From a virus (Duplodnaviria; Heunggongvirae; Uroviricota; Caudoviricetes), in the IMG/VR virus record IMGVR_UViG_3300045836_000008: DNA of 64,000 bases, one strand, 5' to 3'. Under the pieces are notes generated by a model. The model was not told the origin of the DNA. It saw only the letters and a program-made list of their open reading frames with translations, and searched no databases. Position numbers and translations under genes: made by a program. This document shows positions 3,792-50,450 of this stretch, piece by piece; within the stretch, counting starts at the first letter, position 1; every line of letters begins with the position of its first letter.

Positions 3792-3943
3792 TGGACCTGA
3801 TACAATACGCACTCGTTGCCGCGTGTGGGTTTGCGTTGTATCGCGAAGGCTTCAAACGCGGCGCACGTCAAGTCCTTGAAAAACTGGCAGAGATGGGTGT
3901 TGTGCAGTTGCAACAACCTGAACAAGACGAAGAAAACAGTTGA
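3767..3943 (+). CDS. small hypothetical membrane protein (58 aa, one predicted TM)
   Basis: ATG-initiated ORF overlapping the end of the previous gene with a hydrophobic LIQYALVAACGFALY segment. Below the 60-aa ORF-track cutoff. Confidence 0.3.
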   Translation: MYENIFSVMDLIQYALVAACGFALYREGFKRGARQVLEKLAEMGVVQLQQPEQDEENS

Positions 3944-3968
3944 CCAACCTTGGGAATGACTGTATAAT
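3940..3968 (+). promoter_or_regulatory. sigma70-type promoter (TTGACC-17-TATAAT) with CCTTGGGAA half-site in the spacer, driving the tRNA
   Basis: TTGACC aaccttgggaatgactg TATAAT read directly. Member of the window-wide promoter family. Confidence 0.6.
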
Positions 3969-4039: not shown

Positions 4040-4112
4040 GGGTCGGTAGTTTATCTGGCTAAAACGGCGGACTCCAAACCCGCAGTGCAAGGTTCAAGTC
4101 CTTGTCGGCCCG
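4040..4112 (+). tRNA. tRNA, anticodon CCA (tRNA-Trp)
   Basis: Manual cloverleaf: acceptor GGGTCGG/TCGGCCC (two G-U pairs), U8, D-stem GTTT/AAAC with GG in the D-loop, anticodon loop CTCCAAA (U33, CCA, A37), T-arm CAAGG-TTCAAGT-CCTTG, discriminator G, encoded CCA at 4113-4115. One A-C mismatch at 31-39. Confidence 0.6.
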
Positions 4113-4167
4113 CCACATACTTGACCGCCAAGAGCGCGGAACTAAAACCTGAAGAGAAGTAGAGAAG

Positions 4168-6827: not shown

Positions 6828-7064
6828 TAGGAAGGACCGGGAACGCTAAATAGTAGTGTTCCCGTTGTTGACTCTTTGAGTACGGGACCGGGTTGTAGAT
6901 AGTTGAACATCATGTTCCGCGCTTCGCGCGTCGTGCTTCGCACGAAACATCATTCATGGACTTGTTACCAATGACCATGAACCCCGAAAAACCATTATAC
7001 CAACGTCCCAAAGTTGTGTCAAGCTAAATAAATTGACGCAACCCAAACACAAGGATTCACAACA

Positions 7065-8892: not shown

Positions 8893-9399
8893 ATGCCCGA
8901 AGCCGAAGACGTAACAATCGCATTGCTGCAACGGGACTATGAACAGACGCAGCAGATCGTGTCCAAGATGGACACGGCAATCGAGAAGCTAACTGATCTT
9001 GGCGTTGACATGAAGCAGATGTTGGCGCTGCATGAACAACGAATTAACCGGCTTGAACAGATCGACAACGAAATTCATGGTCTTGTTGAAAAACGTCGAA
9101 CAGAACTACAGACGGACATCAAGGACGTGGATGCGAAATTGGCGAACACTATCAAGGAAATTACGGGCGACCTAGCCAACGTCGAGACACGCATCATGAA
9201 GGCCATCGCTGACGTGAAGGAAGACATCAAGTCCGACATCAAGACCGACAAGGAAGAGAAGGCCGAGTCCGACAAGGAACTGGTCAAGCGTGTCGAAAAG
9301 CTAGAGAAGTGGCGCTGGATGATGCTAGGCGGCGGTTTCGTCGTGGGCTTCATCATCGAGAAGGTTCTGCCCCTGCTTCTACCACACGTAGGTGGTTGA
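8893..9399 (+). CDS. hypothetical coiled-coil protein with C-terminal transmembrane segment
   Basis: Heptad-rich middle region and C-terminal WRWMMLGGGFVVGFIIEKVLPLLL segment. Confidence 0.5.
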   Translation: MPEAEDVTIALLQRDYEQTQQIVSKMDTAIEKLTDLGVDMKQMLALHEQRINRLEQIDNEIHGLVEKRRTELQTDIKDVDAKLANTIKEITGDLANVETRIMKAIADVKEDIKSDIKTDKEEKAESDKELVKRVEKLEKWRWMMLGGGFVVGFIIEKVLPLLLPHVGG

Positions 9400-9486
9400 C
9401 AAAACTCCCAGACTTGGGTATAAAGACGGCTTCGGTCGTCTTTTTGCATTTTGGGGCTTGCAAAATTCCCAAGCTTGTGAGATAAT
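9396..9486 (+). promoter_or_regulatory. two tandem family promoters flanking a UUCG-loop terminator
   Basis: TTGACA aaactcccagacttggg TATAAA, then terminator AGACGGC-UUCG-GUCGUCU + UUUUGCAUUUU (about 9424-9446), then TTGCAA aattcccaagcttgtga GATAAT. Precedes the primase. Confidence 0.6.
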
Positions 9487-13338: not shown

Positions 13339-13722
13339 ATGTTCACACTCTCTGAACTCAAATTTGCCGTTGTGTCGCTTGCACTGATCGCTGCTATCGG
13401 TGGTTCTTTCTTCTACGGTCAGCATACGCAGAAGGAATTCGACGGCCTGTTGGCTGCGAAGCAACAACAAGTCATGCAGACGAAGATCGACGCGGAGACG
13501 GATCGACGCAACCAGATTGCCAGTGTCTTCGAAGACAAGCTGGACAACCTGCACATCGTCAACACAACGATCAACCGCACGGTGAAGACCGAACTTCAGA
13601 AGCAAATCTACACGGACTGCAAACTGCCGGATTCCGGCGTTGCACTTATCAACAACAATGCTGACCTGTTGAACGCATCACGTCACGGATCGGCATCTGC
13701 ACCTGTAGCTGCATCCCAATGA
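13339..13722 (+). CDS. inner-membrane spanin (Rz-like i-spanin)
   Basis: N-terminal TM (FAVVSLALIAAIGGSFFY) plus a periplasmic coiled-coil. Adjacent to a lipoprotein gene, as in T4 pseT.3/pseT.2. Confidence 0.6.
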   Translation: MFTLSELKFAVVSLALIAAIGGSFFYGQHTQKEFDGLLAAKQQQVMQTKIDAETDRRNQIASVFEDKLDNLHIVNTTINRTVKTELQKQIYTDCKLPDSGVALINNNADLLNASRHGSASAPVAASQ

Positions 13723-13994
13723 AAAAGCTGATCGCATCCCTTTCGATTTGCGCGGCGCTGGCCGCGTGCGGTACTGCACCGCCAAAGCCAGAACTTGCGC
13801 CTATCGCGACACCGGCTGACCTGACCCGTCAGTGCCCGGACCTGCAACACATCGACTCACAAGCAACACTCGGTACGGCGATGACCTACATCACCGACCT
13901 TCAGAAGCAGTACACCGTCTGTGCCACGCGCAATGACTCCCTTCGTGAAGTGACAACCCCTGTGCAACAAACGTCCACTTCACAAGGCAAGTGA
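13719..13994 (+). CDS. outer-membrane lipoprotein spanin (Rz1-like o-spanin)
   Basis: Lipoprotein signal with lipobox LAAC-G, Pro-rich mature part. Start overlaps the i-spanin stop. Confidence 0.6.
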   Translation: MKKLIASLSICAALAACGTAPPKPELAPIATPADLTRQCPDLQHIDSQATLGTAMTYITDLQKQYTVCATRNDSLREVTTPVQQTSTSQGK

Positions 13995-20186: not shown

Positions 20187-20216
20187 TTGACAAATTCCCA
20201 ACCTTGGGTTTATGAT
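20187..20216 (+). promoter_or_regulatory. family promoter TTGACA-aaattcccaaccttgggtt-TATGAT
   Basis: Palindrome CCCAACCTTGGG in the spacer. Conserved leader TTCTCTCATCG...GGAG. Confidence 0.65.
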
Positions 20217-29384: not shown

Positions 29385-29796
29385 CGGCGTTTTCGACAAG
29401 TCCGGGCAACCGTACATCCTGCATCTGTTGAAGGTCATGCACTACTGCAAGACCGACGACGAAGAACTTCAGTGCATCGCACTCGGTCATGACTTCGTTG
29501 AAGACATCTTCCCGAACGACCACTTGGCCGGGTATGCACTGCTGCGCCGCGAAGGCTTCAGCGAACGGGTCATTCAGGGCATCCGCCGCATGACGAAGGT
29601 CGAAGGCGAGACGGAAGAAGCCTACATCGCCAAGGTGTCGGAATCCATCGACTCGATCACCGTCAAACTAGCCGATCTTCGCCATAACAGCGACATCCGC
29701 CGTTTGAAAGGTCTGCGCGAGAAGGACTTCGAGCGCATGCAGAAGTACCATCGGATGTACCTGAAGCTGAAGGAAGCTGAACTTGAATACGCCTAA
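29329..29796 (+). CDS. HD-domain (p)ppGpp-hydrolase-like protein (SpoT/Mesh1-type)
   Basis: HLLKV...ALGHDFVED HD motif and a downstream DLRHN helix. Confidence 0.6.
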   Translation: MKKGEALSKMLLLVTTRFDGVFDKSGQPYILHLLKVMHYCKTDDEELQCIALGHDFVEDIFPNDHLAGYALLRREGFSERVIQGIRRMTKVEGETEEAYIAKVSESIDSITVKLADLRHNSDIRRLKGLREKDFERMQKYHRMYLKLKEAELEYA

Positions 29797-30010
29797 GATC
29801 ATCGTCTTGACGCTGGCTGCTTGCTTTGTGGCCCTGATCGGATGGGGCATCTACGGCGACATCGAACACCACAAGTACCTTGAAGCGCACGGTTGCCAGT
29901 TGTACTTCAAGGCTGAGACTGGCCGAACGTACATGTCTGGGAAGACGCAGCACTACGAAAGAGTGTACGTCTACGAGTGCGCTGATGGTCGAAAGGTTGA
30001 ACTTGATTAG
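29783..30010 (+). CDS. small hypothetical membrane protein (TTG start)
   Basis: ORF-track call. TM segment IIVLTLAACFVALIGWGIYG. Confidence 0.35.
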   Translation: MNTPKIIVLTLAACFVALIGWGIYGDIEHHKYLEAHGCQLYFKAETGRTYMSGKTQHYERVYVYECADGRKVELD

Positions 30011-30013
30011 CGC

Positions 30014-30042
30014 TTGACAGAATTCCCAAGTCTGGGTATAGT
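30014..30042 (+). promoter_or_regulatory. family promoter TTGACA-gaattcccaagtctggg-TATAGT
   Basis: Leader TACATCCATCGCAGCGCACTTGGAG repeats the CTTGG half-site. Confidence 0.6.
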
Positions 30043-31759: not shown

Positions 31760-32557
31760 ATGAAAATTTTGAAGTCGCTGTTTCTCGTCATGATGATCGC
31801 GGCACTGGCCGCATGTGGCCGCATCGATACCGGTCATACCGGTGTCCGCACAAGCTGGAACAAGCAGGTTCAGCAAGAAGTCGTGCATCCGGGCATGTAC
31901 ATCGCAGTCACGGACTCGGTTCAACAGTACGTCACCAACGAAGTGACGTTCGAAATCAAAGACCTTCAGCCACAAACGCTGGACAAGTCGTACCTGAAGG
32001 ACTTGGACTTCTCGTACACGTACAAGGTCGATTCGTCGGACCTTCCGAACCTTGTCACCACGTTCAAGAACCGCACGGCGGTCAATGGTGACGACTACTA
32101 CCCGATGGGCCTGTACGTCGATACGCAGATTCGTGCAGCCGCCTACACCGCTGCTGGCAAGTTCAACGCGATGGACGCGAACTCGCACCGCAGCGACATC
32201 GAGAAAGACATCAAGACCATCGTCCAGTCGAAGTTCGCTGAAGAAGGTCTGGACAAGGTGATCCACGTGTCGCAGGTGACGATCCGCAACATCGAAGTCG
32301 ATCAGAAGCTTCAAGACGCCGTGGTGCGCCAGTTGAACGCCCAGACCGACAACAAGACCAAAGACATCGAAATCGACACGGCACAGAAAGAAGCCAAGCG
32401 TATGCAGATGTTGACCGAAAACAGTGGCGGTCAGACGTACATCAACCTGCTGAACGCCCAAGCGAACATGAAGATCGCAGAAGGCATCGCGAACGGTCGC
32501 GTCAACACCATCGTCGTGCCGACTGACTTCAAGGGCATCGTCAACACGGCGCACTGA
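31760..32557 (+). CDS. SPFH/band-7 (prohibitin-like) domain lipoprotein
   Basis: Lipoprotein signal LAAC-G followed by an SPFH-like region (long alpha-helical segment QKLQDAVVRQLNAQTDNKTKDIEID...). Confidence 0.55.
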   Translation: MKILKSLFLVMMIAALAACGRIDTGHTGVRTSWNKQVQQEVVHPGMYIAVTDSVQQYVTNEVTFEIKDLQPQTLDKSYLKDLDFSYTYKVDSSDLPNLVTTFKNRTAVNGDDYYPMGLYVDTQIRAAAYTAAGKFNAMDANSHRSDIEKDIKTIVQSKFAEEGLDKVIHVSQVTIRNIEVDQKLQDAVVRQLNAQTDNKTKDIEIDTAQKEAKRMQMLTENSGGQTYINLLNAQANMKIAEGIANGRVNTIVVPTDFKGIVNTAH

Positions 32558-34610: not shown

Positions 34611-34753
34611 TTGACAAGCCCACGTATGTCTGTATAATTCGTTCTCAGGTTGTGACGCAAAACGAAACGCCGAAACGACCTGAACGATAACCAACCCCGT
34701 AGAAGAATCTACATCGTGTAGTTCTCTACTTTTCTTGATAAAGGAAATACATC
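34611..34753 (+). promoter_or_regulatory. promoter TTGACA-16-TATAAT followed by an unusually long (about 115 nt) structured 5' leader
   Basis: The leader contains hairpins (for example AGAAUCUACAUCGUGUAGUUCU) and a GGAAAUACAUC RBS region before the ATG at 34754. Confidence 0.5.
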
Positions 34754-35278
34754 ATGAAGAATATCGCACTCATCGCCGCAATCGCCGCAGCATTCGCAAT
34801 CAACGCACAAGCAGCCGACTTCAGCGGCGCAGTGACCGGTTCGGCATCGGCCTACCAAGGCGCAATCACCGGTTCGGTCGGCAGCGTGTCGCAGGGCAAC
34901 GCCGTGACTTCGGCGGAAGTGGTCGGCAACGGCAGTTCGTACCAGTCGGCCCAGAACGTGACCGGTGGTACGGCGACGGTCGGCGGCACGATCAACGCCG
35001 CTGGCGCATCGGTCGGCACGCAGACGACGCAGTACAGCAACTCGGTCGTGGTCGGCAAGACTTCGGGCGACGCCCCGGCCATGTCGGGCAACAGCATCGT
35101 GAACGGCGGTTCGGCATTCGGCCAGACCAACACGACCGCGACCGGCAACGCGACGTTCGGCAGCGGCGCAATCGGCGGCACGCTCGCCATCGCTGGTGTC
35201 GGCAGCATCGGCCCGGTCGCGCCGATTGGCGGCACGGATAACGGTGTCGGCAACGGCGGTCAGAACCACGGCAAGTAA
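34754..35278 (+). CDS. Sec-secreted Gly/Ser/Thr/Gln/Asn-rich repeat protein
   Basis: Signal peptide MKNIALIAAIAAAFAINAQA|AD. Mature protein is low-complexity with quasi-repeats (SxxxQGxxxGxxxxxxQGN...). No Cys. Confidence 0.7.
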   Translation: MKNIALIAAIAAAFAINAQAADFSGAVTGSASAYQGAITGSVGSVSQGNAVTSAEVVGNGSSYQSAQNVTGGTATVGGTINAAGASVGTQTTQYSNSVVVGKTSGDAPAMSGNSIVNGGSAFGQTNTTATGNATFGSGAIGGTLAIAGVGSIGPVAPIGGTDNGVGNGGQNHGK

Positions 35279-35395
35279 GCCACGGCTGTCTGAGTAGTAC
35301 CTACATGAAGTAAGGGTCCGCGTCCAGCAGAGATGCGAGCGTTAGCCAGAAATCTACGCGGACCCGCAACACCTGAAATCGTTTTGGAGTCCTAT

Positions 35396-35917
35396 ATGAA
35401 AAAGATCATCGCCGCCGCACTGTTCTCGTTCGCAACCGTTTCCGCATTCGCACAAGTCAACGCATCGACAAACGCCACGACCAACAGTTCGTCCGGTGCG
35501 ACGAACCAAGGCGTCAACCAAGGCATCACGTTCAACAGCGCGGCGCAGCCGACCACGACGACCGTCAAGACGACCGGCAACGCTGTCGTGTCGGGTTTCG
35601 CGGGTTCGTTCTCGTCGGACTACTGCGGTGGAACCGCTGGTCTGGCTGTTGGCGGTCCCGGCTTCGCGGTCAGCGCGGGCGCACCCAAGATCGACCACGG
35701 CTGCACGCTGCTGCGTTCGTTCGAACGTCTGCAACAGGCCGCAGCATCGGACCCGGCTGACGCACCGGCACTGCACGCCGCAGCGCTCGATGTGCTGGCG
35801 GAAGTCGATCCGGCAGTCCGCAAGGCGCTGGAAAAGCACAAGCTGATCGCAGTCGCAGACGACAAGGTACGCGAAAATGACCAAGGCCAACTGGTGTACG
35901 CGAAAGCACAGCCCTGA
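35396..35917 (+). CDS. Sec-secreted protein: Asn/Thr/Ser-rich N-terminal region plus alpha-helical C-terminal domain
   Basis: Signal peptide MKKIIAAALFSFATVSAFA|QV and two Cys (CGG...HGC). Confidence 0.65.
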   Translation: MKKIIAAALFSFATVSAFAQVNASTNATTNSSSGATNQGVNQGITFNSAAQPTTTTVKTTGNAVVSGFAGSFSSDYCGGTAGLAVGGPGFAVSAGAPKIDHGCTLLRSFERLQQAAASDPADAPALHAAALDVLAEVDPAVRKALEKHKLIAVADDKVRENDQGQLVYAKAQP

Positions 35918-35919
35918 TG

Positions 35920-35968
35920 TTGACAGGGATTCCCAGACTTGATATAATGTTTGCTTCAAGTCTGGGAA
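35920..35968 (+). promoter_or_regulatory. family promoter TTGACA-gggattcccagacttga-TATAAT with a perfect 12-bp inverted repeat (TTCCCAGACTTG / CAAGTCTGGGAA) bracketing the -10
   Basis: Read directly. Confidence 0.65.
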
Positions 35969-35977
35969 CGCAGCAAG

Positions 35978-36139
35978 ATGAAGAAGAAAAAGAAGAACTT
36001 CAAGAATCACAAGAGCAACAAGATCGTGATCGAGTTCGAAACCACGAAGCCGCGAATTGGTGTGATCTTCACCAAAGTCGTGTCCAACAAAAACTTGAAG
36101 AAGCACAAGATCAAGCACAAGCACAAGGTTGTTGATTGA
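35978..36139 (+). CDS. small extremely Lys-rich basic protein (53 aa)
   Basis: MKKKKKNFKNHKSNKIVIEFETTKPRIGVIFTKVVSNKNLKKHKIKHKHKVVD. Low GC. The alternative-frame Glu/Gln-rich ORF 35917-36135 is the same sequence in another frame. Confidence 0.4.
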   Translation: MKKKKKNFKNHKSNKIVIEFETTKPRIGVIFTKVVSNKNLKKHKIKHKHKVVD

Positions 36140-37601: not shown

Positions 37602-37628
37602 ACGAAGTAGAACAAGAAGAGAGTGAAG

Positions 37629-38741
37629 ATGAAGCAATATGATGTCGTGGTGTACCGTGGGCGCTTTCAAGGAATGCACGAAGCGCACCTGAAGACTATT
37701 CTGATGGGTCTGCAACTCGCCAAGAAGGTCGTCGTGGTCATCGGTAGTGCGAACGAACCGCGCACCTACTACCGCAACCCGTTCTTCGAGAACGAACGTA
37801 TCGAGATGATCCGTGCGGCACTGGCCGATCACTTCCGGCACGATGACGTGGTATTCACGACCGTCGAAGATCATCCCGACGACAACGTATGGGCTGAAAT
37901 GGTCGCAGAGAACGTGCAAATAATGATCGATGCACTAGACCACGAAGGCGCATTTGGTGACAAGCTGAATCGTCTGCGCATCGGTCAGATTGGCTACAAG
38001 AAGGACGACAATTGCGTTCGTGACGTGGACCTGTTCCCGCAGTGGGAATACATCGATACGCCGCACTTCGAACCGCTCGATGCCACGAAGGTCCGCGAAA
38101 TCTACTTCAGCAAGACGCCGCTGACGTACCTGATGGGTGTGTGCCCCGCACCTGTAATCCGATGGCTGTCCGACTTCCGTGCAACGGAAGCGTTCGACCT
38201 GATGATGCAGGAAAAGGAATACTGCGACAACTACAAGAAGCAGTTCGAACATCTCGAATATGCGCCTACGTTCGTGACTGGTGACAACGTGCCGTTCCAA
38301 GACGACACGATCCTTCTGGTGAAGCGCAAGAACCATCCGGGCAAGGGTCTGTGGGCTTTCGCTGCTGGCTTCTTCAACGCTGCTGACCGTCTGACCAAGA
38401 ACGGCGAACTGGTCAAGGCCGACAAGTCCGTGTTCGACTGCGCCGTTCGTGAACTGTTCGAAGAGACGAACGCGAGTCTCACGAAAGAAGAACTGAAAGA
38501 AGCGTGCATCGCTGAAGGTCTGTTCGACGCAGAAGGTCGCGATCCGCGTGGCCGCATCGTGACGCAAGCATATGTCTACAACTTCGACGGTCGTGAAGTC
38601 TTCTCGGTCGAAGCATCGGACGATGCAGAAGAAGTGCGCCGCTTCCACATCTCGGAAGTGAATCGCCGCATGATGTATGCCGACCACTACAGCATCTTCT
38701 TGCAAGCGCTCGAATCCTATCGCAATTCGAAGTACAACTGA
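37629..38741 (+). CDS. nadM: bifunctional nicotinamide-mononucleotide adenylyltransferase / Nudix hydrolase (NadM-Nudix)
   Basis: N-terminal cytidylyltransferase-fold motif YRGRFQGMHEAH (the HxGH variant) and C-terminal Nudix box (GKGLWAFAAG...AVRELFEETNASL). Confidence 0.8.
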   Translation: MKQYDVVVYRGRFQGMHEAHLKTILMGLQLAKKVVVVIGSANEPRTYYRNPFFENERIEMIRAALADHFRHDDVVFTTVEDHPDDNVWAEMVAENVQIMIDALDHEGAFGDKLNRLRIGQIGYKKDDNCVRDVDLFPQWEYIDTPHFEPLDATKVREIYFSKTPLTYLMGVCPAPVIRWLSDFRATEAFDLMMQEKEYCDNYKKQFEHLEYAPTFVTGDNVPFQDDTILLVKRKNHPGKGLWAFAAGFFNAADRLTKNGELVKADKSVFDCAVRELFEETNASLTKEELKEACIAEGLFDAEGRDPRGRIVTQAYVYNFDGREVFSVEASDDAEEVRRFHISEVNRRMMYADHYSIFLQALESYRNSKYN

Positions 38742-38766
38742 AAACTCTCTACAGGAATCAAACCAC

Positions 38767-40128
38767 ATGCTGCAAACGAAAAACATCCAACTGTCGCAAA
38801 ACTTCGTTCTCGAATCGGATTCGTACAAGTTCAGCCACAACCCGGAAATCTACCCGGAAGGCGCAGAAGCGCTGCACTCGTATCTGTCGGCCCGCGTGAA
38901 GGGTTCGCGCGTGGTGCAGTTCGGCCTTCAGATGTGGATCAAGAAGAAGCTGCTGGCCCCGATCACGCTCGCGATGATCGATGAAGCCGAAGACTTCATC
39001 ACTCGTCACATCGGCCCCGGTGGTTTCGACCGTGGCTTCTGGGAACACATCCTGCACACGTACAACGGCTACATCCCGCTGGTGATCCGTGGTCTGCCGG
39101 AAGGCACTGTGACCGACAGCTACGACACGCTGGTGACGGTTGACTGTTTCGACCCGCGCGTGTTCCCGCTGGCGCAGCACATCGAAGCATCGCTGCAATC
39201 TGACCTGTGGTACAGCACGACCATCGCGACGAACGATCTGGAAAACTACGAAGTCGCGAAGTCGCACTTCGATCTGTTCTCGGACAACCCGGTTCTTCTC
39301 GCGTTCATGCTTCACGACTTCGGCGCACGCGGTGTGACCTGTGAAGAACAACGCCAGATTGGCGGCGCAGCGCACCTGATCTTCTTCCAAGGTTCGGACA
39401 CGATCAGCGGCATCCGTGCGGCAAACCTGTTCTACAACTGCGAGATGGCCGCGTATTCGGTTCGCGCCACGGAACATAGCATCCAGTGCGCCTACGGCCC
39501 CGAAGGGCAAGAAGAGTACATCCGGCGCGTCCTGAAGGCACATGCGAAACCGGGCAACATCGTGTCGCTGGTTCTCGACGGCTACAACGTGTGGCGCGAA
39601 GCCGAACTTCTCTGCACGAAGTTCAAAGACCAAATCATCGAAAGCGGCGCGAAGATCGTCTTCCGTCCCGATTCGGGTGACATGTTCGAAGTGGTTCCGC
39701 GCATTCTCGAAATGCAAGCGCAACACTTCGGCTTCACCGTGAACTCGAAGGGCAAGAAGGTCATCAACAACGTTGGTGTCATCCAAGGTGACGGCATCGA
39801 CAAGATCACGTTCATGCTGCTGATGCAGAAGGTCGTGGCCCTTGGCTATGCCCCTGAATGCGTCGTGATGGGTTCCGGTGGCGGTTTGCTTCAGAAGGTC
39901 AACCGTGACACGCTGAAGTTCGCGCAGAAGGCCGCAGCCATCAAGATCAATGGTGTCTGGGTTGACATGTTCAAAGACCCGATCACCGATCCGGGCAAGA
40001 AGTCGAAGACCGGTCGTCAAGACGATCCGCGCTTCGTCACGTTCTACGACCACGGCGAACTGTTGGTCGATGAATCGCTCGACGTGATCCGGGCACGTGC
40101 GCTCGAAGGCGCAAAAATTCGCAAGTAA
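38767..40128 (+). CDS. nadV: nicotinamide phosphoribosyltransferase (NadV/NAMPT)
   Basis: 454 aa. Family-typical segments (SDSYKFSH, GARGV, QGDGI, VMGSGGGLLQK). Adjacent to nadM as in KVP40-type phages. Confidence 0.85.
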   Translation: MLQTKNIQLSQNFVLESDSYKFSHNPEIYPEGAEALHSYLSARVKGSRVVQFGLQMWIKKKLLAPITLAMIDEAEDFITRHIGPGGFDRGFWEHILHTYNGYIPLVIRGLPEGTVTDSYDTLVTVDCFDPRVFPLAQHIEASLQSDLWYSTTIATNDLENYEVAKSHFDLFSDNPVLLAFMLHDFGARGVTCEEQRQIGGAAHLIFFQGSDTISGIRAANLFYNCEMAAYSVRATEHSIQCAYGPEGQEEYIRRVLKAHAKPGNIVSLVLDGYNVWREAELLCTKFKDQIIESGAKIVFRPDSGDMFEVVPRILEMQAQHFGFTVNSKGKKVINNVGVIQGDGIDKITFMLLMQKVVALGYAPECVVMGSGGGLLQKVNRDTLKFAQKAAAIKINGVWVDMFKDPITDPGKKSKTGRQDDPRFVTFYDHGELLVDESLDVIRARALEGAKIRK

Positions 40129-40499: not shown

Positions 40500-40528
40500 T
40501 TGACACGAATTCCCAAGGTCGGTATAAT
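40500..40528 (+). promoter_or_regulatory. family promoter TTGACA-cgaattcccaaggtcgg-TATAAT
   Basis: Leader TCTCTTCATCGGTTGGACATCACTAGGAG. Confidence 0.65.
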
Positions 40529-41030: not shown

Positions 41031-42113
41031 ATGAAGAAGTGGCTTTTGGGTCTTGTACTCGCAGTCTCGTCGGCAGTCGCATTCGCACTCCCGTCCCCGC
41101 ATCAAATCGAAGACGCACTCGCAACGCAGCACTACAGCGATGCTCGTTCGATGGTCCAACAGGTACTTGAAGAGAAGCCGGATTCCGCCCGCGCTCACCT
41201 TCTCGATGCCTACATCCTGATCCACGTCGATCACAACAAGCAAGCCGCATCGCAAGAACTCGACAACGCGCGCCGTCTCGACAAGAAGGGCGATGTCGCC
41301 AACAGTCCGTTGTTCGGTCGCACCGCAGCCGAAATCGACATGACGAAGGCATCGGCCAAGCCCGCACCGGCACAACAGCAAGCGCAACCGGCGCAAGTCG
41401 TCGTGCAAGACGGTACGCAGTTCCAGCCGCAGCCGAAGCATGAAGGCCATCCGTTCCTGACCTTCCTGTTGTTCGCAGCGATCATCGGCTTGATCGGCTA
41501 CATCCTGTACCTGATCTTCCGCCGACCGCGTGTCGTCGTGCAAGAGCGTCATGTCTACCATGCGCCGACCTATGACACCGGCAGTGTCGCAAGCGCCCCG
41601 GCCATCTCGGTTTCGTCGGCCCCGCGTGTGACTTCCACGGTGGTTGAACGCCAAGTCGTCGGCAGTGCCTACGTGTCGCCTTCCCCGGCCCCGGTCATCA
41701 TCAACAACGGCGGTGGTTATGGTCGCGGTTACGGCAACGATGGCTTCGTTGAAGGCATGTTGATCGGTGAGATGATGGAAGAGAACCGCGAGACTCGCCG
41801 CGAACTCGATGCAGACCGCTACGAACGTCGCCGTGAACGCGACAGCTACAGTTCGTCGTCTTCGTCCAGCTACGACGCATCGCCTTCGAGTTCGGAACCT
41901 TCCACGTCCTACGCATCCGACCGTCAGTCGTTCTCGTCGGGCAGCGACGATAGCTGGTCCAGCCGCAGCAGTTCGTCGTATAGCTCGTCATCGTCGGATT
42001 CGTCGTCAAGCTGGTCGTCGGGTTCTTCGTCGTCGGACTACAGTTCGTCCAGCTACGACAGCGGTTCGTCGTCATCGTGGGACAGCGGCAGTTCGTCGGG
42101 TAGCGACTGGTAA
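41031..42113 (+). CDS. membrane protein: signal/TM, TPR-like helical region, a second TM, and an extreme Ser-rich C-terminal low-complexity tail
   Basis: N-terminal hydrophobic LGLVLAVSSAVAFA, internal TM FLTFLLFAAIIGLIGYILYLIF, C-terminal 100 aa about 60% Ser with W/Y/D punctuation (SSSSWSSGSSSSDYSSSSYDSGSSSSWDSGSSSGSDW). Confidence 0.65.
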   Translation: MKKWLLGLVLAVSSAVAFALPSPHQIEDALATQHYSDARSMVQQVLEEKPDSARAHLLDAYILIHVDHNKQAASQELDNARRLDKKGDVANSPLFGRTAAEIDMTKASAKPAPAQQQAQPAQVVVQDGTQFQPQPKHEGHPFLTFLLFAAIIGLIGYILYLIFRRPRVVVQERHVYHAPTYDTGSVASAPAISVSSAPRVTSTVVERQVVGSAYVSPSPAPVIINNGGGYGRGYGNDGFVEGMLIGEMMEENRETRRELDADRYERRRERDSYSSSSSSSYDASPSSSEPSTSYASDRQSFSSGSDDSWSSRSSSSYSSSSSDSSSSWSSGSSSSDYSSSSYDSGSSSSWDSGSSSGSDW

Positions 42114-46338: not shown

Positions 46339-46746
46339 ATGTTCAAGAAGTTCGCAGTAGCAGTAGCAGGTATGGCGCTTGCAATGTCGGCCCACGCATT
46401 CAGCGCGGCAGCGGGTCACGCATCGGTATCCGTGGCACACGTCAGTGTCGTGTCGTCGGCCCATCCGGTCGCAGTGGCCGCACCGCACGTATCGGTCGTA
46501 GAACCGGTCGCGACGGCCCACGTAGCACCAACCCCCGCCGCGAAGCCAGCAACCCCGCCTGTGGCCGCTAAACCGGCTGCAACGGCAACGTCGCAGGTTG
46601 CGAAAGAAGCGACGGTCGCAAAGACGACGCTGGTTCCGAAGGCAACCGTTCCGCACACGCCGATCACGGTGGTTCGTGGCAAGACGGCAACCGCAGCAGC
46701 GTATGCTTCGGAAGCCAGTGCAGCATCGGCGGCACGCGCGAAGTAA
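46339..46746 (+). CDS. Sec-secreted His/Val/Ser/Ala/Pro-rich low-complexity protein
   Basis: Signal peptide MFKKFAVAVAGMALAMSAHA|FS. Repeats AHVSVVSSAHPVAVAAPHVSVVEPVATAHVAP. Ala/Pro/Lys-rich tail. Confidence 0.6.
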   Translation: MFKKFAVAVAGMALAMSAHAFSAAAGHASVSVAHVSVVSSAHPVAVAAPHVSVVEPVATAHVAPTPAAKPATPPVAAKPAATATSQVAKEATVAKTTLVPKATVPHTPITVVRGKTATAAAYASEASAASAARAK

Positions 46747-49186: not shown

Positions 49187-49216
49187 CTTGACACGAATTC
49201 CCAGACATGGGATAAT
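49187..49216 (+). promoter_or_regulatory. family promoter TTGACA-cgaattcccagacatggg-ATAATA
   Basis: Leader GCTTCACATCAACGAACCGGGAG. Confidence 0.6.
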
Positions 49217-49983: not shown

Positions 49984-50169
49984 ATGAGAATCGAATACTG
50001 GTGTCAAGATCGGTATGAACGTCTTCGTCACGAGCAATACGATCATCGCTTCACGGTCATTCCGCGCATCGGTGAGTTCGTTAAACTCCCCAACTACAAC
50101 AACCGGATGGTGGCGAATATCGTCCATGATCCAATCAACGAATTCGTGAAGGTCTGGCTACACGTATGA
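49984..50169 (+). CDS. small hypothetical protein
   Basis: 61-aa ORF. Confidence 0.4.
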   Translation: MRIEYWCQDRYERLRHEQYDHRFTVIPRIGEFVKLPNYNNRMVANIVHDPINEFVKVWLHV

Positions 50170-50450
50170 AGAAACTGATCCTGTCGGCGCTGTTGTTCGC
50201 AGCGCTGGCCGGGTGTAAGTACAACCGCACACCCGAACAACTAGAACAAGAAAAGATACAACAGGCGTATGAACACCAACTGCGCCAGCAACGCGACGTA
50301 GAATCCGCGAAACACCAAATCGACGCCCAAAACCAGTGGTTGCATTCGTGCGATTCCAATGGCGGTGTCGTCTCCATCTCGCATAGTCGGTATGACACAA
50401 CGCTGACCTGCGCCAACAAACTCGAATCAAAACTCTCGTCTTTCCAGTAA
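50166..50450 (+). CDS. small lipoprotein
   Basis: Lipobox LAGC (MKKLILSALLFAALAGC|KY). Confidence 0.55.
   Translation: MKKLILSALLFAALAGCKYNRTPEQLEQEKIQQAYEHQLRQQRDVESAKHQIDAQNQWLHSCDSNGGVVSISHSRYDTTLTCANKLESKLSSFQ

Follow-up and report, generated by a model that had tools for sequence, protein, structure and literature searches.

The gpA–gpB unit and its two products

We examined a pair of adjacent genes, here called gpA and gpB, in a 64,000-nucleotide stretch of tailed-phage DNA (Caudoviricetes; IMG/VR record IMGVR_UViG_3300045836_000008), which in its entirety is referred to as the window. Both genes lie on the plus strand, gpA (174 amino acids) at 34754–35278 and gpB (173 amino acids) at 35396–35917, and both products have predicted signal peptides. 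The window also carries genes for DnaB, primase, ribonucleotide reductase, NAMPT and ligase and represents the region for replication and nucleotide metabolism in a large phage (about 172 kb); an identical gpB is present on a metagenomic contig of 172,555 bp. The main point, missed in a preliminary description of this DNA, is that the pair is conserved, mobile and also fixed in some host chromosomes.

A sigma-70-type promoter at 34611–34638 (plus strand; TTGACA, a 16-nt spacer and TATAAT) matches the consensus at 12 of 12 positions and precedes gpA. The next perfect sigma-70 promoter (35920–35948, plus strand) begins 3 nt past the gpB stop codon and marks the 3′ boundary of the pair. Because perfect promoters flank the genes on both sides, gpA and gpB form a self-contained two-gene unit with a perfect sigma-70 promoter of its own. 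Nine near-consensus sigma-70 sites occur in the window, against 0.11 expected by chance. Most of these promoters share a motif in the spacer that separates the −35 and −10 elements, the small palindrome (A)TTCCCA-N4-TGGG. The gpA–gpB promoter lacks the motif, unlike most of its sister promoters. The preliminary description is borne out as regards a promoter, here a strong one of host type, with a long structured leader behind it; that the promoter is family-type was not confirmed.

The leader (34645–34753, plus strand) is about 109 nt long, with a Shine–Dalgarno sequence, AAGGAA, before the start codon. Its length is an outlier; the leaders behind 7 of the 11 consensus promoters of the window measure 23–31 nt. 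Hairpins are predicted at approximately 34646–34682 and 34699–34729, and the minimum free energy of the fold is −29.1 kcal/mol, compared with −18.9 ± 3.0 for shuffled sequences (z = −3.46; 1 of 200 shuffles equals it). Among five close relatives, too alike for an analysis of covariation, one (locus L011) has lost two of the eight pairs of hairpin 1. Between gpA and gpB, a perfect 10-bp inverted repeat, GGGTCCGCGT and ACGCGGACCC, encloses a 32-nt loop (35314–35365, plus strand) and is unchanged in five close relatives. The whole spacer folds no better than its shuffles (z = −0.25). A terminator scan found no T-run after the repeat, so it is not an intrinsic terminator; that it may set the ratio of gpA to gpB is a guess. 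Neither the leader nor the spacer matches any family in Rfam.

The two proteins begin alike, with a basic N terminus, an uncharged hydrophobic core of 13–16 residues and a small-x-small site at positions 19–20. In gpA, residues 1–20 (34754–34813; MKNIALIAAIAAAFAINAQA, followed by ADF) contain one Lys, a 13-residue core with a mean Kyte–Doolittle (KD) hydropathy of 2.9 and an A-Q-A site after residue 20. The corresponding segment of gpB (MKKIIAAALFSFATVSAFA, followed by QVN) ends in an A-F-A site after residue 19. The same architecture is kept across the alignments of both families. It is nearly certain, from a rule-based check and from conservation within the families, that gpA and gpB carry cleavable Sec-type signal peptides and are exported, in agreement with what the preliminary description had said of the two reading frames.

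The remainder of gpA consists of a conserved core (residues ∼36–148) and a Gly-rich tail. The protein has no Cys and contains 20% Gly, 17% Ala, 11% Ser, 10% Thr and 8% Asn. Many Gly, Asn, Gln, Ser and Thr positions of the core, which is rich in these residues and in Ala, are invariant across homologues. A search with the single sequence returned 1 homologue, and a profile of five sequences returned 67, mostly from Achromobacter. The Cys-free, small-residue-rich character attributed to gpA earlier is therefore correct, but the internal quasi-repeats that went with it do not exceed what chance would give: the best self-similarity score is equaled in 24 of 300 shuffles that preserve composition, and the N- and C-terminal halves align in hhalign with E = 0.13. 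The AlphaFold2 model has four long strands at a predicted local distance difference test (pLDDT) score of 46; it is not trustworthy and was of too low a quality for use as a structural query. A pattern resembling a Gly zipper is found within the last 45 residues of 47 of the 58 gpA-family members. We considered a C-terminal membrane anchor and rejected it for most members, the median of the highest 19-residue KD window being 1.13.

In gpB, a flexible Asn/Thr/Ser-rich region (residues 20–70; 35453–35605) leads into a conserved core (residues 71–147; 35606–35836). There are exactly two Cys residues, C77 (35624–35626) and C103 (35702–35704), and both are invariant in the family, as are S71, F72, S73, D75, G89, D100 and R107. 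The family core reads S-F-S-x-D-Y-C ... P-K-x-D-x-x-C-x-x-x-R-x-x-E, and gpB of the window has every invariant residue: its core consists of the SFSSDYC motif, a β hairpin bracketed by C77 and C103, and a three-helix bundle. An AlphaFold2 model built from a 57-sequence alignment has a disordered arm (residues 15–73, pLDDT < 50), the hairpin at 78–99 and the bundle at 101–147 (pLDDT > 90), which bears out the low-complexity N-terminal half and two-Cys helical C-terminal domain proposed earlier. Alignment of gpA with the N-terminal arm of gpB was limited to the signal peptides, and no homology was found.

A conserved gene pair in phages and host chromosomes

A word-indexed search found 57 homologues of gpB. 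An exhaustive profile search of representative clusters returned 778 at E ≤ 1e-3, 221 at E ≤ 1e-10 and 70 at E ≤ 1e-30. We provisionally define the family by a signal peptide, a low-complexity arm, the S-F-S-x-D-Y-C core and an adjoining secreted partner rich in small residues; the pair of the window has all of these, with gpA as the partner. Wherever the contig extends far enough, the two genes are adjacent and on the same strand in all fetched loci. The adjoining pair was seen in prophages of Paraburkholderia and Caballeronia, in the Achromobacter chromosome, in phages AXY1, vB_Ade_ART and phiAxp-2 and in 30 IMG/VR viral contigs. Both virulent and temperate phages are represented, with hosts among the beta-, alpha- and gammaproteobacteria.

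The specificity of this association was apparent from a scan of 1620 open reading frame (ORF) segments of at least 90 amino acids in 56 loci. A partner was required to have a signal peptide and at least 66% Gly, Ser, Ala, Thr, Asn and Gln. Fifty-three segments passed, and all 53 adjoin a gpB gene. Conversely, 50 of the 53 loci with the gpB motif have a partner when this rule is applied strictly. Of the other three, L046 lies at a contig end, L023 has a partner with a signal peptide that the rule missed, and L051 is borderline in composition at 61%.

Two arrangements were found. In type 1, represented by the window, a gpA of 155–180 amino acids lies upstream of a gpB of 170–240. In type 2, which occurs in phages and prophages, with prophages of sphingomonads among them, gpB is longer (243–324 amino acids), has a prion-like Gln/Gly/Ser/Asn tract and is followed downstream by a partner of 127–135 amino acids. 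Small residues are just as abundant in this partner, which ends in a hydrophobic tail, [VI][YW]x[FY]xxP. The two partner families have no detectable relation, since hhalign aligns their signal peptides only. Unrelated families thus occupy the same slot, upstream or downstream of gpB, which points to selection for a type of partner and not for one lineage. Selection has preserved the partnership though the partner family and the gene order were swapped. In our reading, gpA and gpB of the window would represent one instance of a mobile, two-gene envelope module not described before.

The C terminus of gpB in the window and in the Paraburkholderia clade reads VYA[KV]AQP, and that of the unrelated type-2 partner reads VY[VI][FY][IV]QP, so each arrangement contains one protein with a similar, short hydrophobic tail ending in Q-P (window, 35894–35914; L012, 9219–9239; L029, 5027–5047). 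The common ending could be a docking or sorting signal, or a coincidence. Several type-2 loci also have a third small ORF behind the pair (L028, 5089–5358; L029, 5149–5415; L047, 5186–5641), with an N terminus resembling a signal peptide and a Pro-rich C terminus (PPTPYNPTP); its product could be a third component of the module.

In temperate phages, the module lies in the early region, between the repressor gene and genes for RecT, excisionase or integrase, or after SSB; elsewhere among phages, genes for polymerase or primase precede it. In a sample of 109 ORFs, the neighbors encode DNA polymerase, helicase, portal, capsid, RecT and similar products, and the sampled phage contigs that bear the pair are genuine phages. 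These neighbors have no consistent linkage to lysis genes, one locus having a muramidase gene directly downstream. No plasmid copies of the pair were found.

The pair is also found outside prophages. In all 24 contigs of Achromobacter that were read, and likewise in Bordetella genomosp. 1, it occupies one and the same non-prophage chromosomal site, in the order RNase T ... A, B, a convergent gene for an MscK-like channel, then LysR and acetyl-CoA hydrolase. This site is a vertically inherited host locus. The mechanosensitive channel gene (DUF3772 and MS_channel domains; L005, 8727–11090; L057, 7228–9648; L058, 7283–9808) is always convergent with the pair in these two genera, which may reflect no more than shared gene order, or else a functional tie to envelope tension.

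Sequence identities among the gpB proteins follow the host clade. Those of Achromobacter phages are 60–66% identical to the chromosomal gpB of Alcaligenaceae and 40–46% identical to the group formed by the window and Paraburkholderia (Burkholderiaceae), and gpB of the window is 58–60% identical to the prophage copies of Paraburkholderia and Caballeronia. The phage of the window therefore probably infects a member of the Burkholderiaceae, and the tracking of host clades suggests an interaction with host-specific envelope components. At the DNA level, the only relative among sequenced phages was a weak match, elsewhere in the query, to Stenotrophomonas phage DLP_6.

Neither gpA nor gpB has a significant match in Pfam, PHROGs v4, NCBIfam or PADLOC, and scans of these family libraries with distant relatives likewise gave nothing significant. 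All source-named members are called hypothetical protein, save for two automatic labels ("ESPR domain-containing protein" in UniRef and "prophage DNA circulation protein" at JGI). The phiAxp-2 genome paper gives the pair, orf51 and orf52, as unknown (PMC5037462). An accessory phage unit aimed at the envelope is a known kind of element; in the literature searched, we found no description of the two-part architecture or of either family.

Other features of the window

The promoters that carry the TTCCCA-N4-TGGG motif lie at 3940–3968, 6994–7022 (minus strand), 9396–9424, 20187–20216, 30014–30042, 35920–35948, 40500–40528 and 49188–49216. At the 35920 promoter, the spacer sequence TTCCCAGACTTGA recurs inverted (TCAAGTCTGGGAA) just past the −10 element, where it could serve as an operator or, in the transcript, form a 5′-terminal hairpin. 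Directly behind this promoter is an ORF (35978–36139, plus strand) for an extremely basic protein of 53 amino acids, MKKKKKNFKNHKSNK...KKHKIKHKHKVVD, which is also a gene call in related contigs. A tRNA-Trp gene (4040–4115) lies behind the 3940 promoter, and a NAD-salvage pair (a cytidylyltransferase-like, CTP_transf_like, and Nudix protein, and nicotinamide phosphoribosyltransferase) is encoded within 37623–40128. A tRNA gene and NAD-salvage genes are typical of large T4-like phages.

Proteins exported by Sec had been thought uncommon in phages in the preliminary description. The window contradicts this: a rule-based scan identified four ORFs with candidate lipoprotein signals (lipobox L-A-[AG]-C or similar), at 13719–13994, 29783–30010, 31760–32557 (a Band_7/SPFH-family protein) and 50166–50450, and one, at 41031–42113 (360 amino acids), with a candidate signal peptide and a strongly hydrophobic membrane segment; all five are on the plus strand. 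A further secreted protein had been noted at 46339–46746 (plus strand), and this is a real ORF whose N terminus resembles a signal peptide (MFKKFAVAVAGMALAMSAHA, followed by FS). By such a scan, the phage appears to invest heavily in envelope-targeted proteins. The product of 46339–46746 is rich in Ala, Val, His, Ser and Pro and has no match in NCBIfam, Pfam, PHROGs or PADLOC. Its His-x-Ser/Ala triplets (HAS, HVS, HVS and HVA) recall HxsA, a His-x-Ser repeat effector that blocks phage DNA entry (PMC13128918).

A proposed role in the periplasm

We propose, with a probability of roughly 0.4, that gpA and gpB are an envelope-modifying pair that acts in the periplasm, most plausibly by excluding superinfecting phages; the exclusion function itself is a guess. 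Exclusion was one of the roles raised in the preliminary description, together with receptor masking and anti-defense, either of which may also apply. We favor it because the module is carried in the early regions of virulent-type and temperate phages, is mobile, tracks the host clade and has been fixed in two host genera. Host RNA polymerase would transcribe the unit, with its perfect sigma-70 promoter among replication genes, at an early stage, and Sec would export both products. In the periplasm, host disulfide-forming enzymes could close C77–C103 and thereby lock the β hairpin onto the three-helix bundle. gpA, presumably made in excess, may assemble into a β-rich oligomer or mesh on or around gpB, possibly via the flexible Asn/Thr-rich arm. 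gpB would be the specific component and the small-residue-rich partner the bulk, self-associating material. Their joint site of action would be the periplasm or the inner side of the outer membrane, and in infected or lysogenic cells the assembly would alter the envelope. The likeliest payoff would be a barrier to superinfecting phages, with tail penetration or DNA entry blocked, or to another envelope-directed attack.

Among the closest known systems are the superinfection-exclusion proteins of T4, above all Spackle, a small, early, periplasmic factor that inhibits the gp5 tail lysozyme (PMC7677548). The gpA–gpB unit appears to resemble it in that the promoter is of early type and belongs to a large phage of virulent style, Sec signal peptides are present, and gpB is small, partly helical and, by prediction, extracytoplasmic; by analogy we suggest that the pair may likewise act in the periplasm of the infected cell. 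In the HXS system, the periplasmic repeat effector HxsA blocks phage DNA entry (PMC13128918). Here the analogy would be a signal-peptide-bearing repeat or low-complexity protein that serves as a physical or electrostatic barrier in the periplasm; gpA and gpB differ in lacking His-x-Ser repeats, a peptidoglycan-binding domain and any NCBIfam match, and radical-SAM maturases are absent from their neighborhoods. Phage morons and the envelope proteins of lysogenic conversion, such as lambda Lom and Bor, T5 Llp and Cor, are similar as small, self-contained, mobile accessory units that encode envelope-targeted proteins in non-essential regions. They are, however, single outer-membrane barrels or lipoproteins, whereas the present unit comprises two signal-peptidase-I-type proteins with no lipobox, encoded by inseparable genes.

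Several points weigh against the proposed exclusion role. The signal peptides were judged by a rule-based heuristic and by family conservation only. gpB has no likeness to any solved structure and no similarity to Spackle in sequence or fold, and PADLOC gave no match to the pair at E ≤ 1. Because the gpA model is unreliable, its assembly is deduced from composition and conservation only. Finally, the vertically inherited chromosomal copy could mean an ordinary cellular role in the envelope, unrelated to phage exclusion.

This last point is the core of the strongest alternative, which we nevertheless regard as unlikely: that the pair is a cellular envelope-maintenance module, with an original structural or stress-related job in the envelope of Alcaligenaceae and Burkholderiaceae, borrowed by phages to keep the envelope intact or to tune it during infection, with no exclusion role. 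The syntenic non-prophage site in the 24 Achromobacter contigs and Bordetella genomosp. 1 would be expected on this view, as would the grouping of phage copies with those of their own host clade. Most members, however, are found in phages and prophages of three proteobacterial classes. A change of partner family within a constant architecture is a pattern seen more in accessory or conflict genes, and we found nothing that connects the pair with a known envelope pathway.

The preliminary description had likened gpA to curlin and other β-solenoid repeats, and in its full form the idea would make gpA a functional amyloid or β-solenoid fiber subunit, gpB its nucleator or chaperone, and the product fibers on the cell surface. 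The pair does resemble CsgA and CsgB of curli in being encoded by two adjacent genes and in being Sec-exported, Gly/Asn/Gln/Ser-rich and mostly Cys-free, with a possible division into major subunit and helper. The conserved Gly, Asn and Gln positions of gpA, the prion-like tracts of the type-2 gpB proteins and the preference of AlphaFold2 for long β strands in gpA fit this idea, and the curli pore genes csgGF occur in some T4-like marine phages (PMC9004378). Direct comparison gave a different picture. Pfam curlin-repeat models do not match gpA, gpB or the type-2 partners at E ≤ 1, and when the gpA and type-2 partner families were compared by hhalign with E. coli CsgA, only the signal peptide aligned. 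The pair thus lacks a curlin repeat by hidden Markov model and by profile, and it has no significant internal repeat, the one model in which gpA is β-rich having the low confidence given above. No CsgG/FapF-type pore gene was found in loci with Pfam-annotated gene tables (for this phage, within the part of the genome that the window covers), nor were genes for CsgG, CsgE or CsgF in annotated loci. In addition, gpB has a predicted folded, disulfide-bearing domain that is absent from CsgB. The likeness to curlin was accordingly abandoned, and we consider the amyloid explanation very unlikely.

A role as a lysis accessory, for example as an alternative outer-membrane disruptor or a periplasmic pair that times lysis, seems slightly less probable again. 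A few type-2 loci lie beside or are convergent with an endolysin gene (a muramidase in L041, Peptidase_M15_3 in L015), and no lysis genes were identified in phiAxp-2 by those who described its genome (PMC5037462). The unit of the window, though, has an early-type sigma-70 promoter among replication genes, and the neighbors of the pair are mostly replication or recombination genes. Spanins, whether Rz/Rz1 or unimolecular, are distinguished by a lipobox, a membrane anchor or both, within a lysis cassette: neither signal peptide of the pair contains Cys, the hydrophobicity of the C-terminal segment of gpA is below the level of an anchor in most members, and the genes lie among replication genes. 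It is also unlikely that the chromosomes of Achromobacter and Bordetella would retain a lytic factor as a fixed pair. Least probable of all is a toxin with its immunity protein, in which gpA would be a glycine-zipper, membrane-active peptide neutralized in the periplasm by gpB, for although the zipper-like tail of gpA and the tight linkage of a mobile two-gene module are compatible with it, that tail is weakly hydrophobic, the pattern is present in only 2 of 17 type-2 partners, conservation in gpA lies in the long core and not in the tail, the signal is of Sec type instead of a double-glycine leader with an exporter, and no route out of the producing cell is evident.

Returning to the proposed periplasmic exclusion, a bolder form of it, which we hold to be distinctly doubtful, would describe a new kind of periplasmic barrier common to phages and some of their hosts. 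The disulfide-locked gpB would anchor or nucleate self-assembling gpA, or its unrelated substitutes, as a layer of mesh or fibrils that physically stops tail tips, ejected DNA and other envelope-crossing machines, and in Achromobacter and Bordetella the barrier would have been domesticated to serve as a permanent defense.

Envelope-targeted accessory genes of phages decide which phages can co-infect or re-infect a cell; to our knowledge, few such genes are understood outside T4, T5 and lambda. The module described here is widespread, with hundreds of gpB-family clusters, yet it is wholly unannotated. Achromobacter is an emerging pathogen in cystic fibrosis, for which phage therapy is under development. 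The therapeutic-type Achromobacter phages AXY1, phiAxp-2 and vB_Ade_ART have their own copies of the pair, which is also fixed in Achromobacter chromosomes. If phage entry or the properties of the envelope are indeed under the control of the pair, this would matter directly for how phage cocktails are designed and would add a new two-protein architecture to the known periplasmic defenses.

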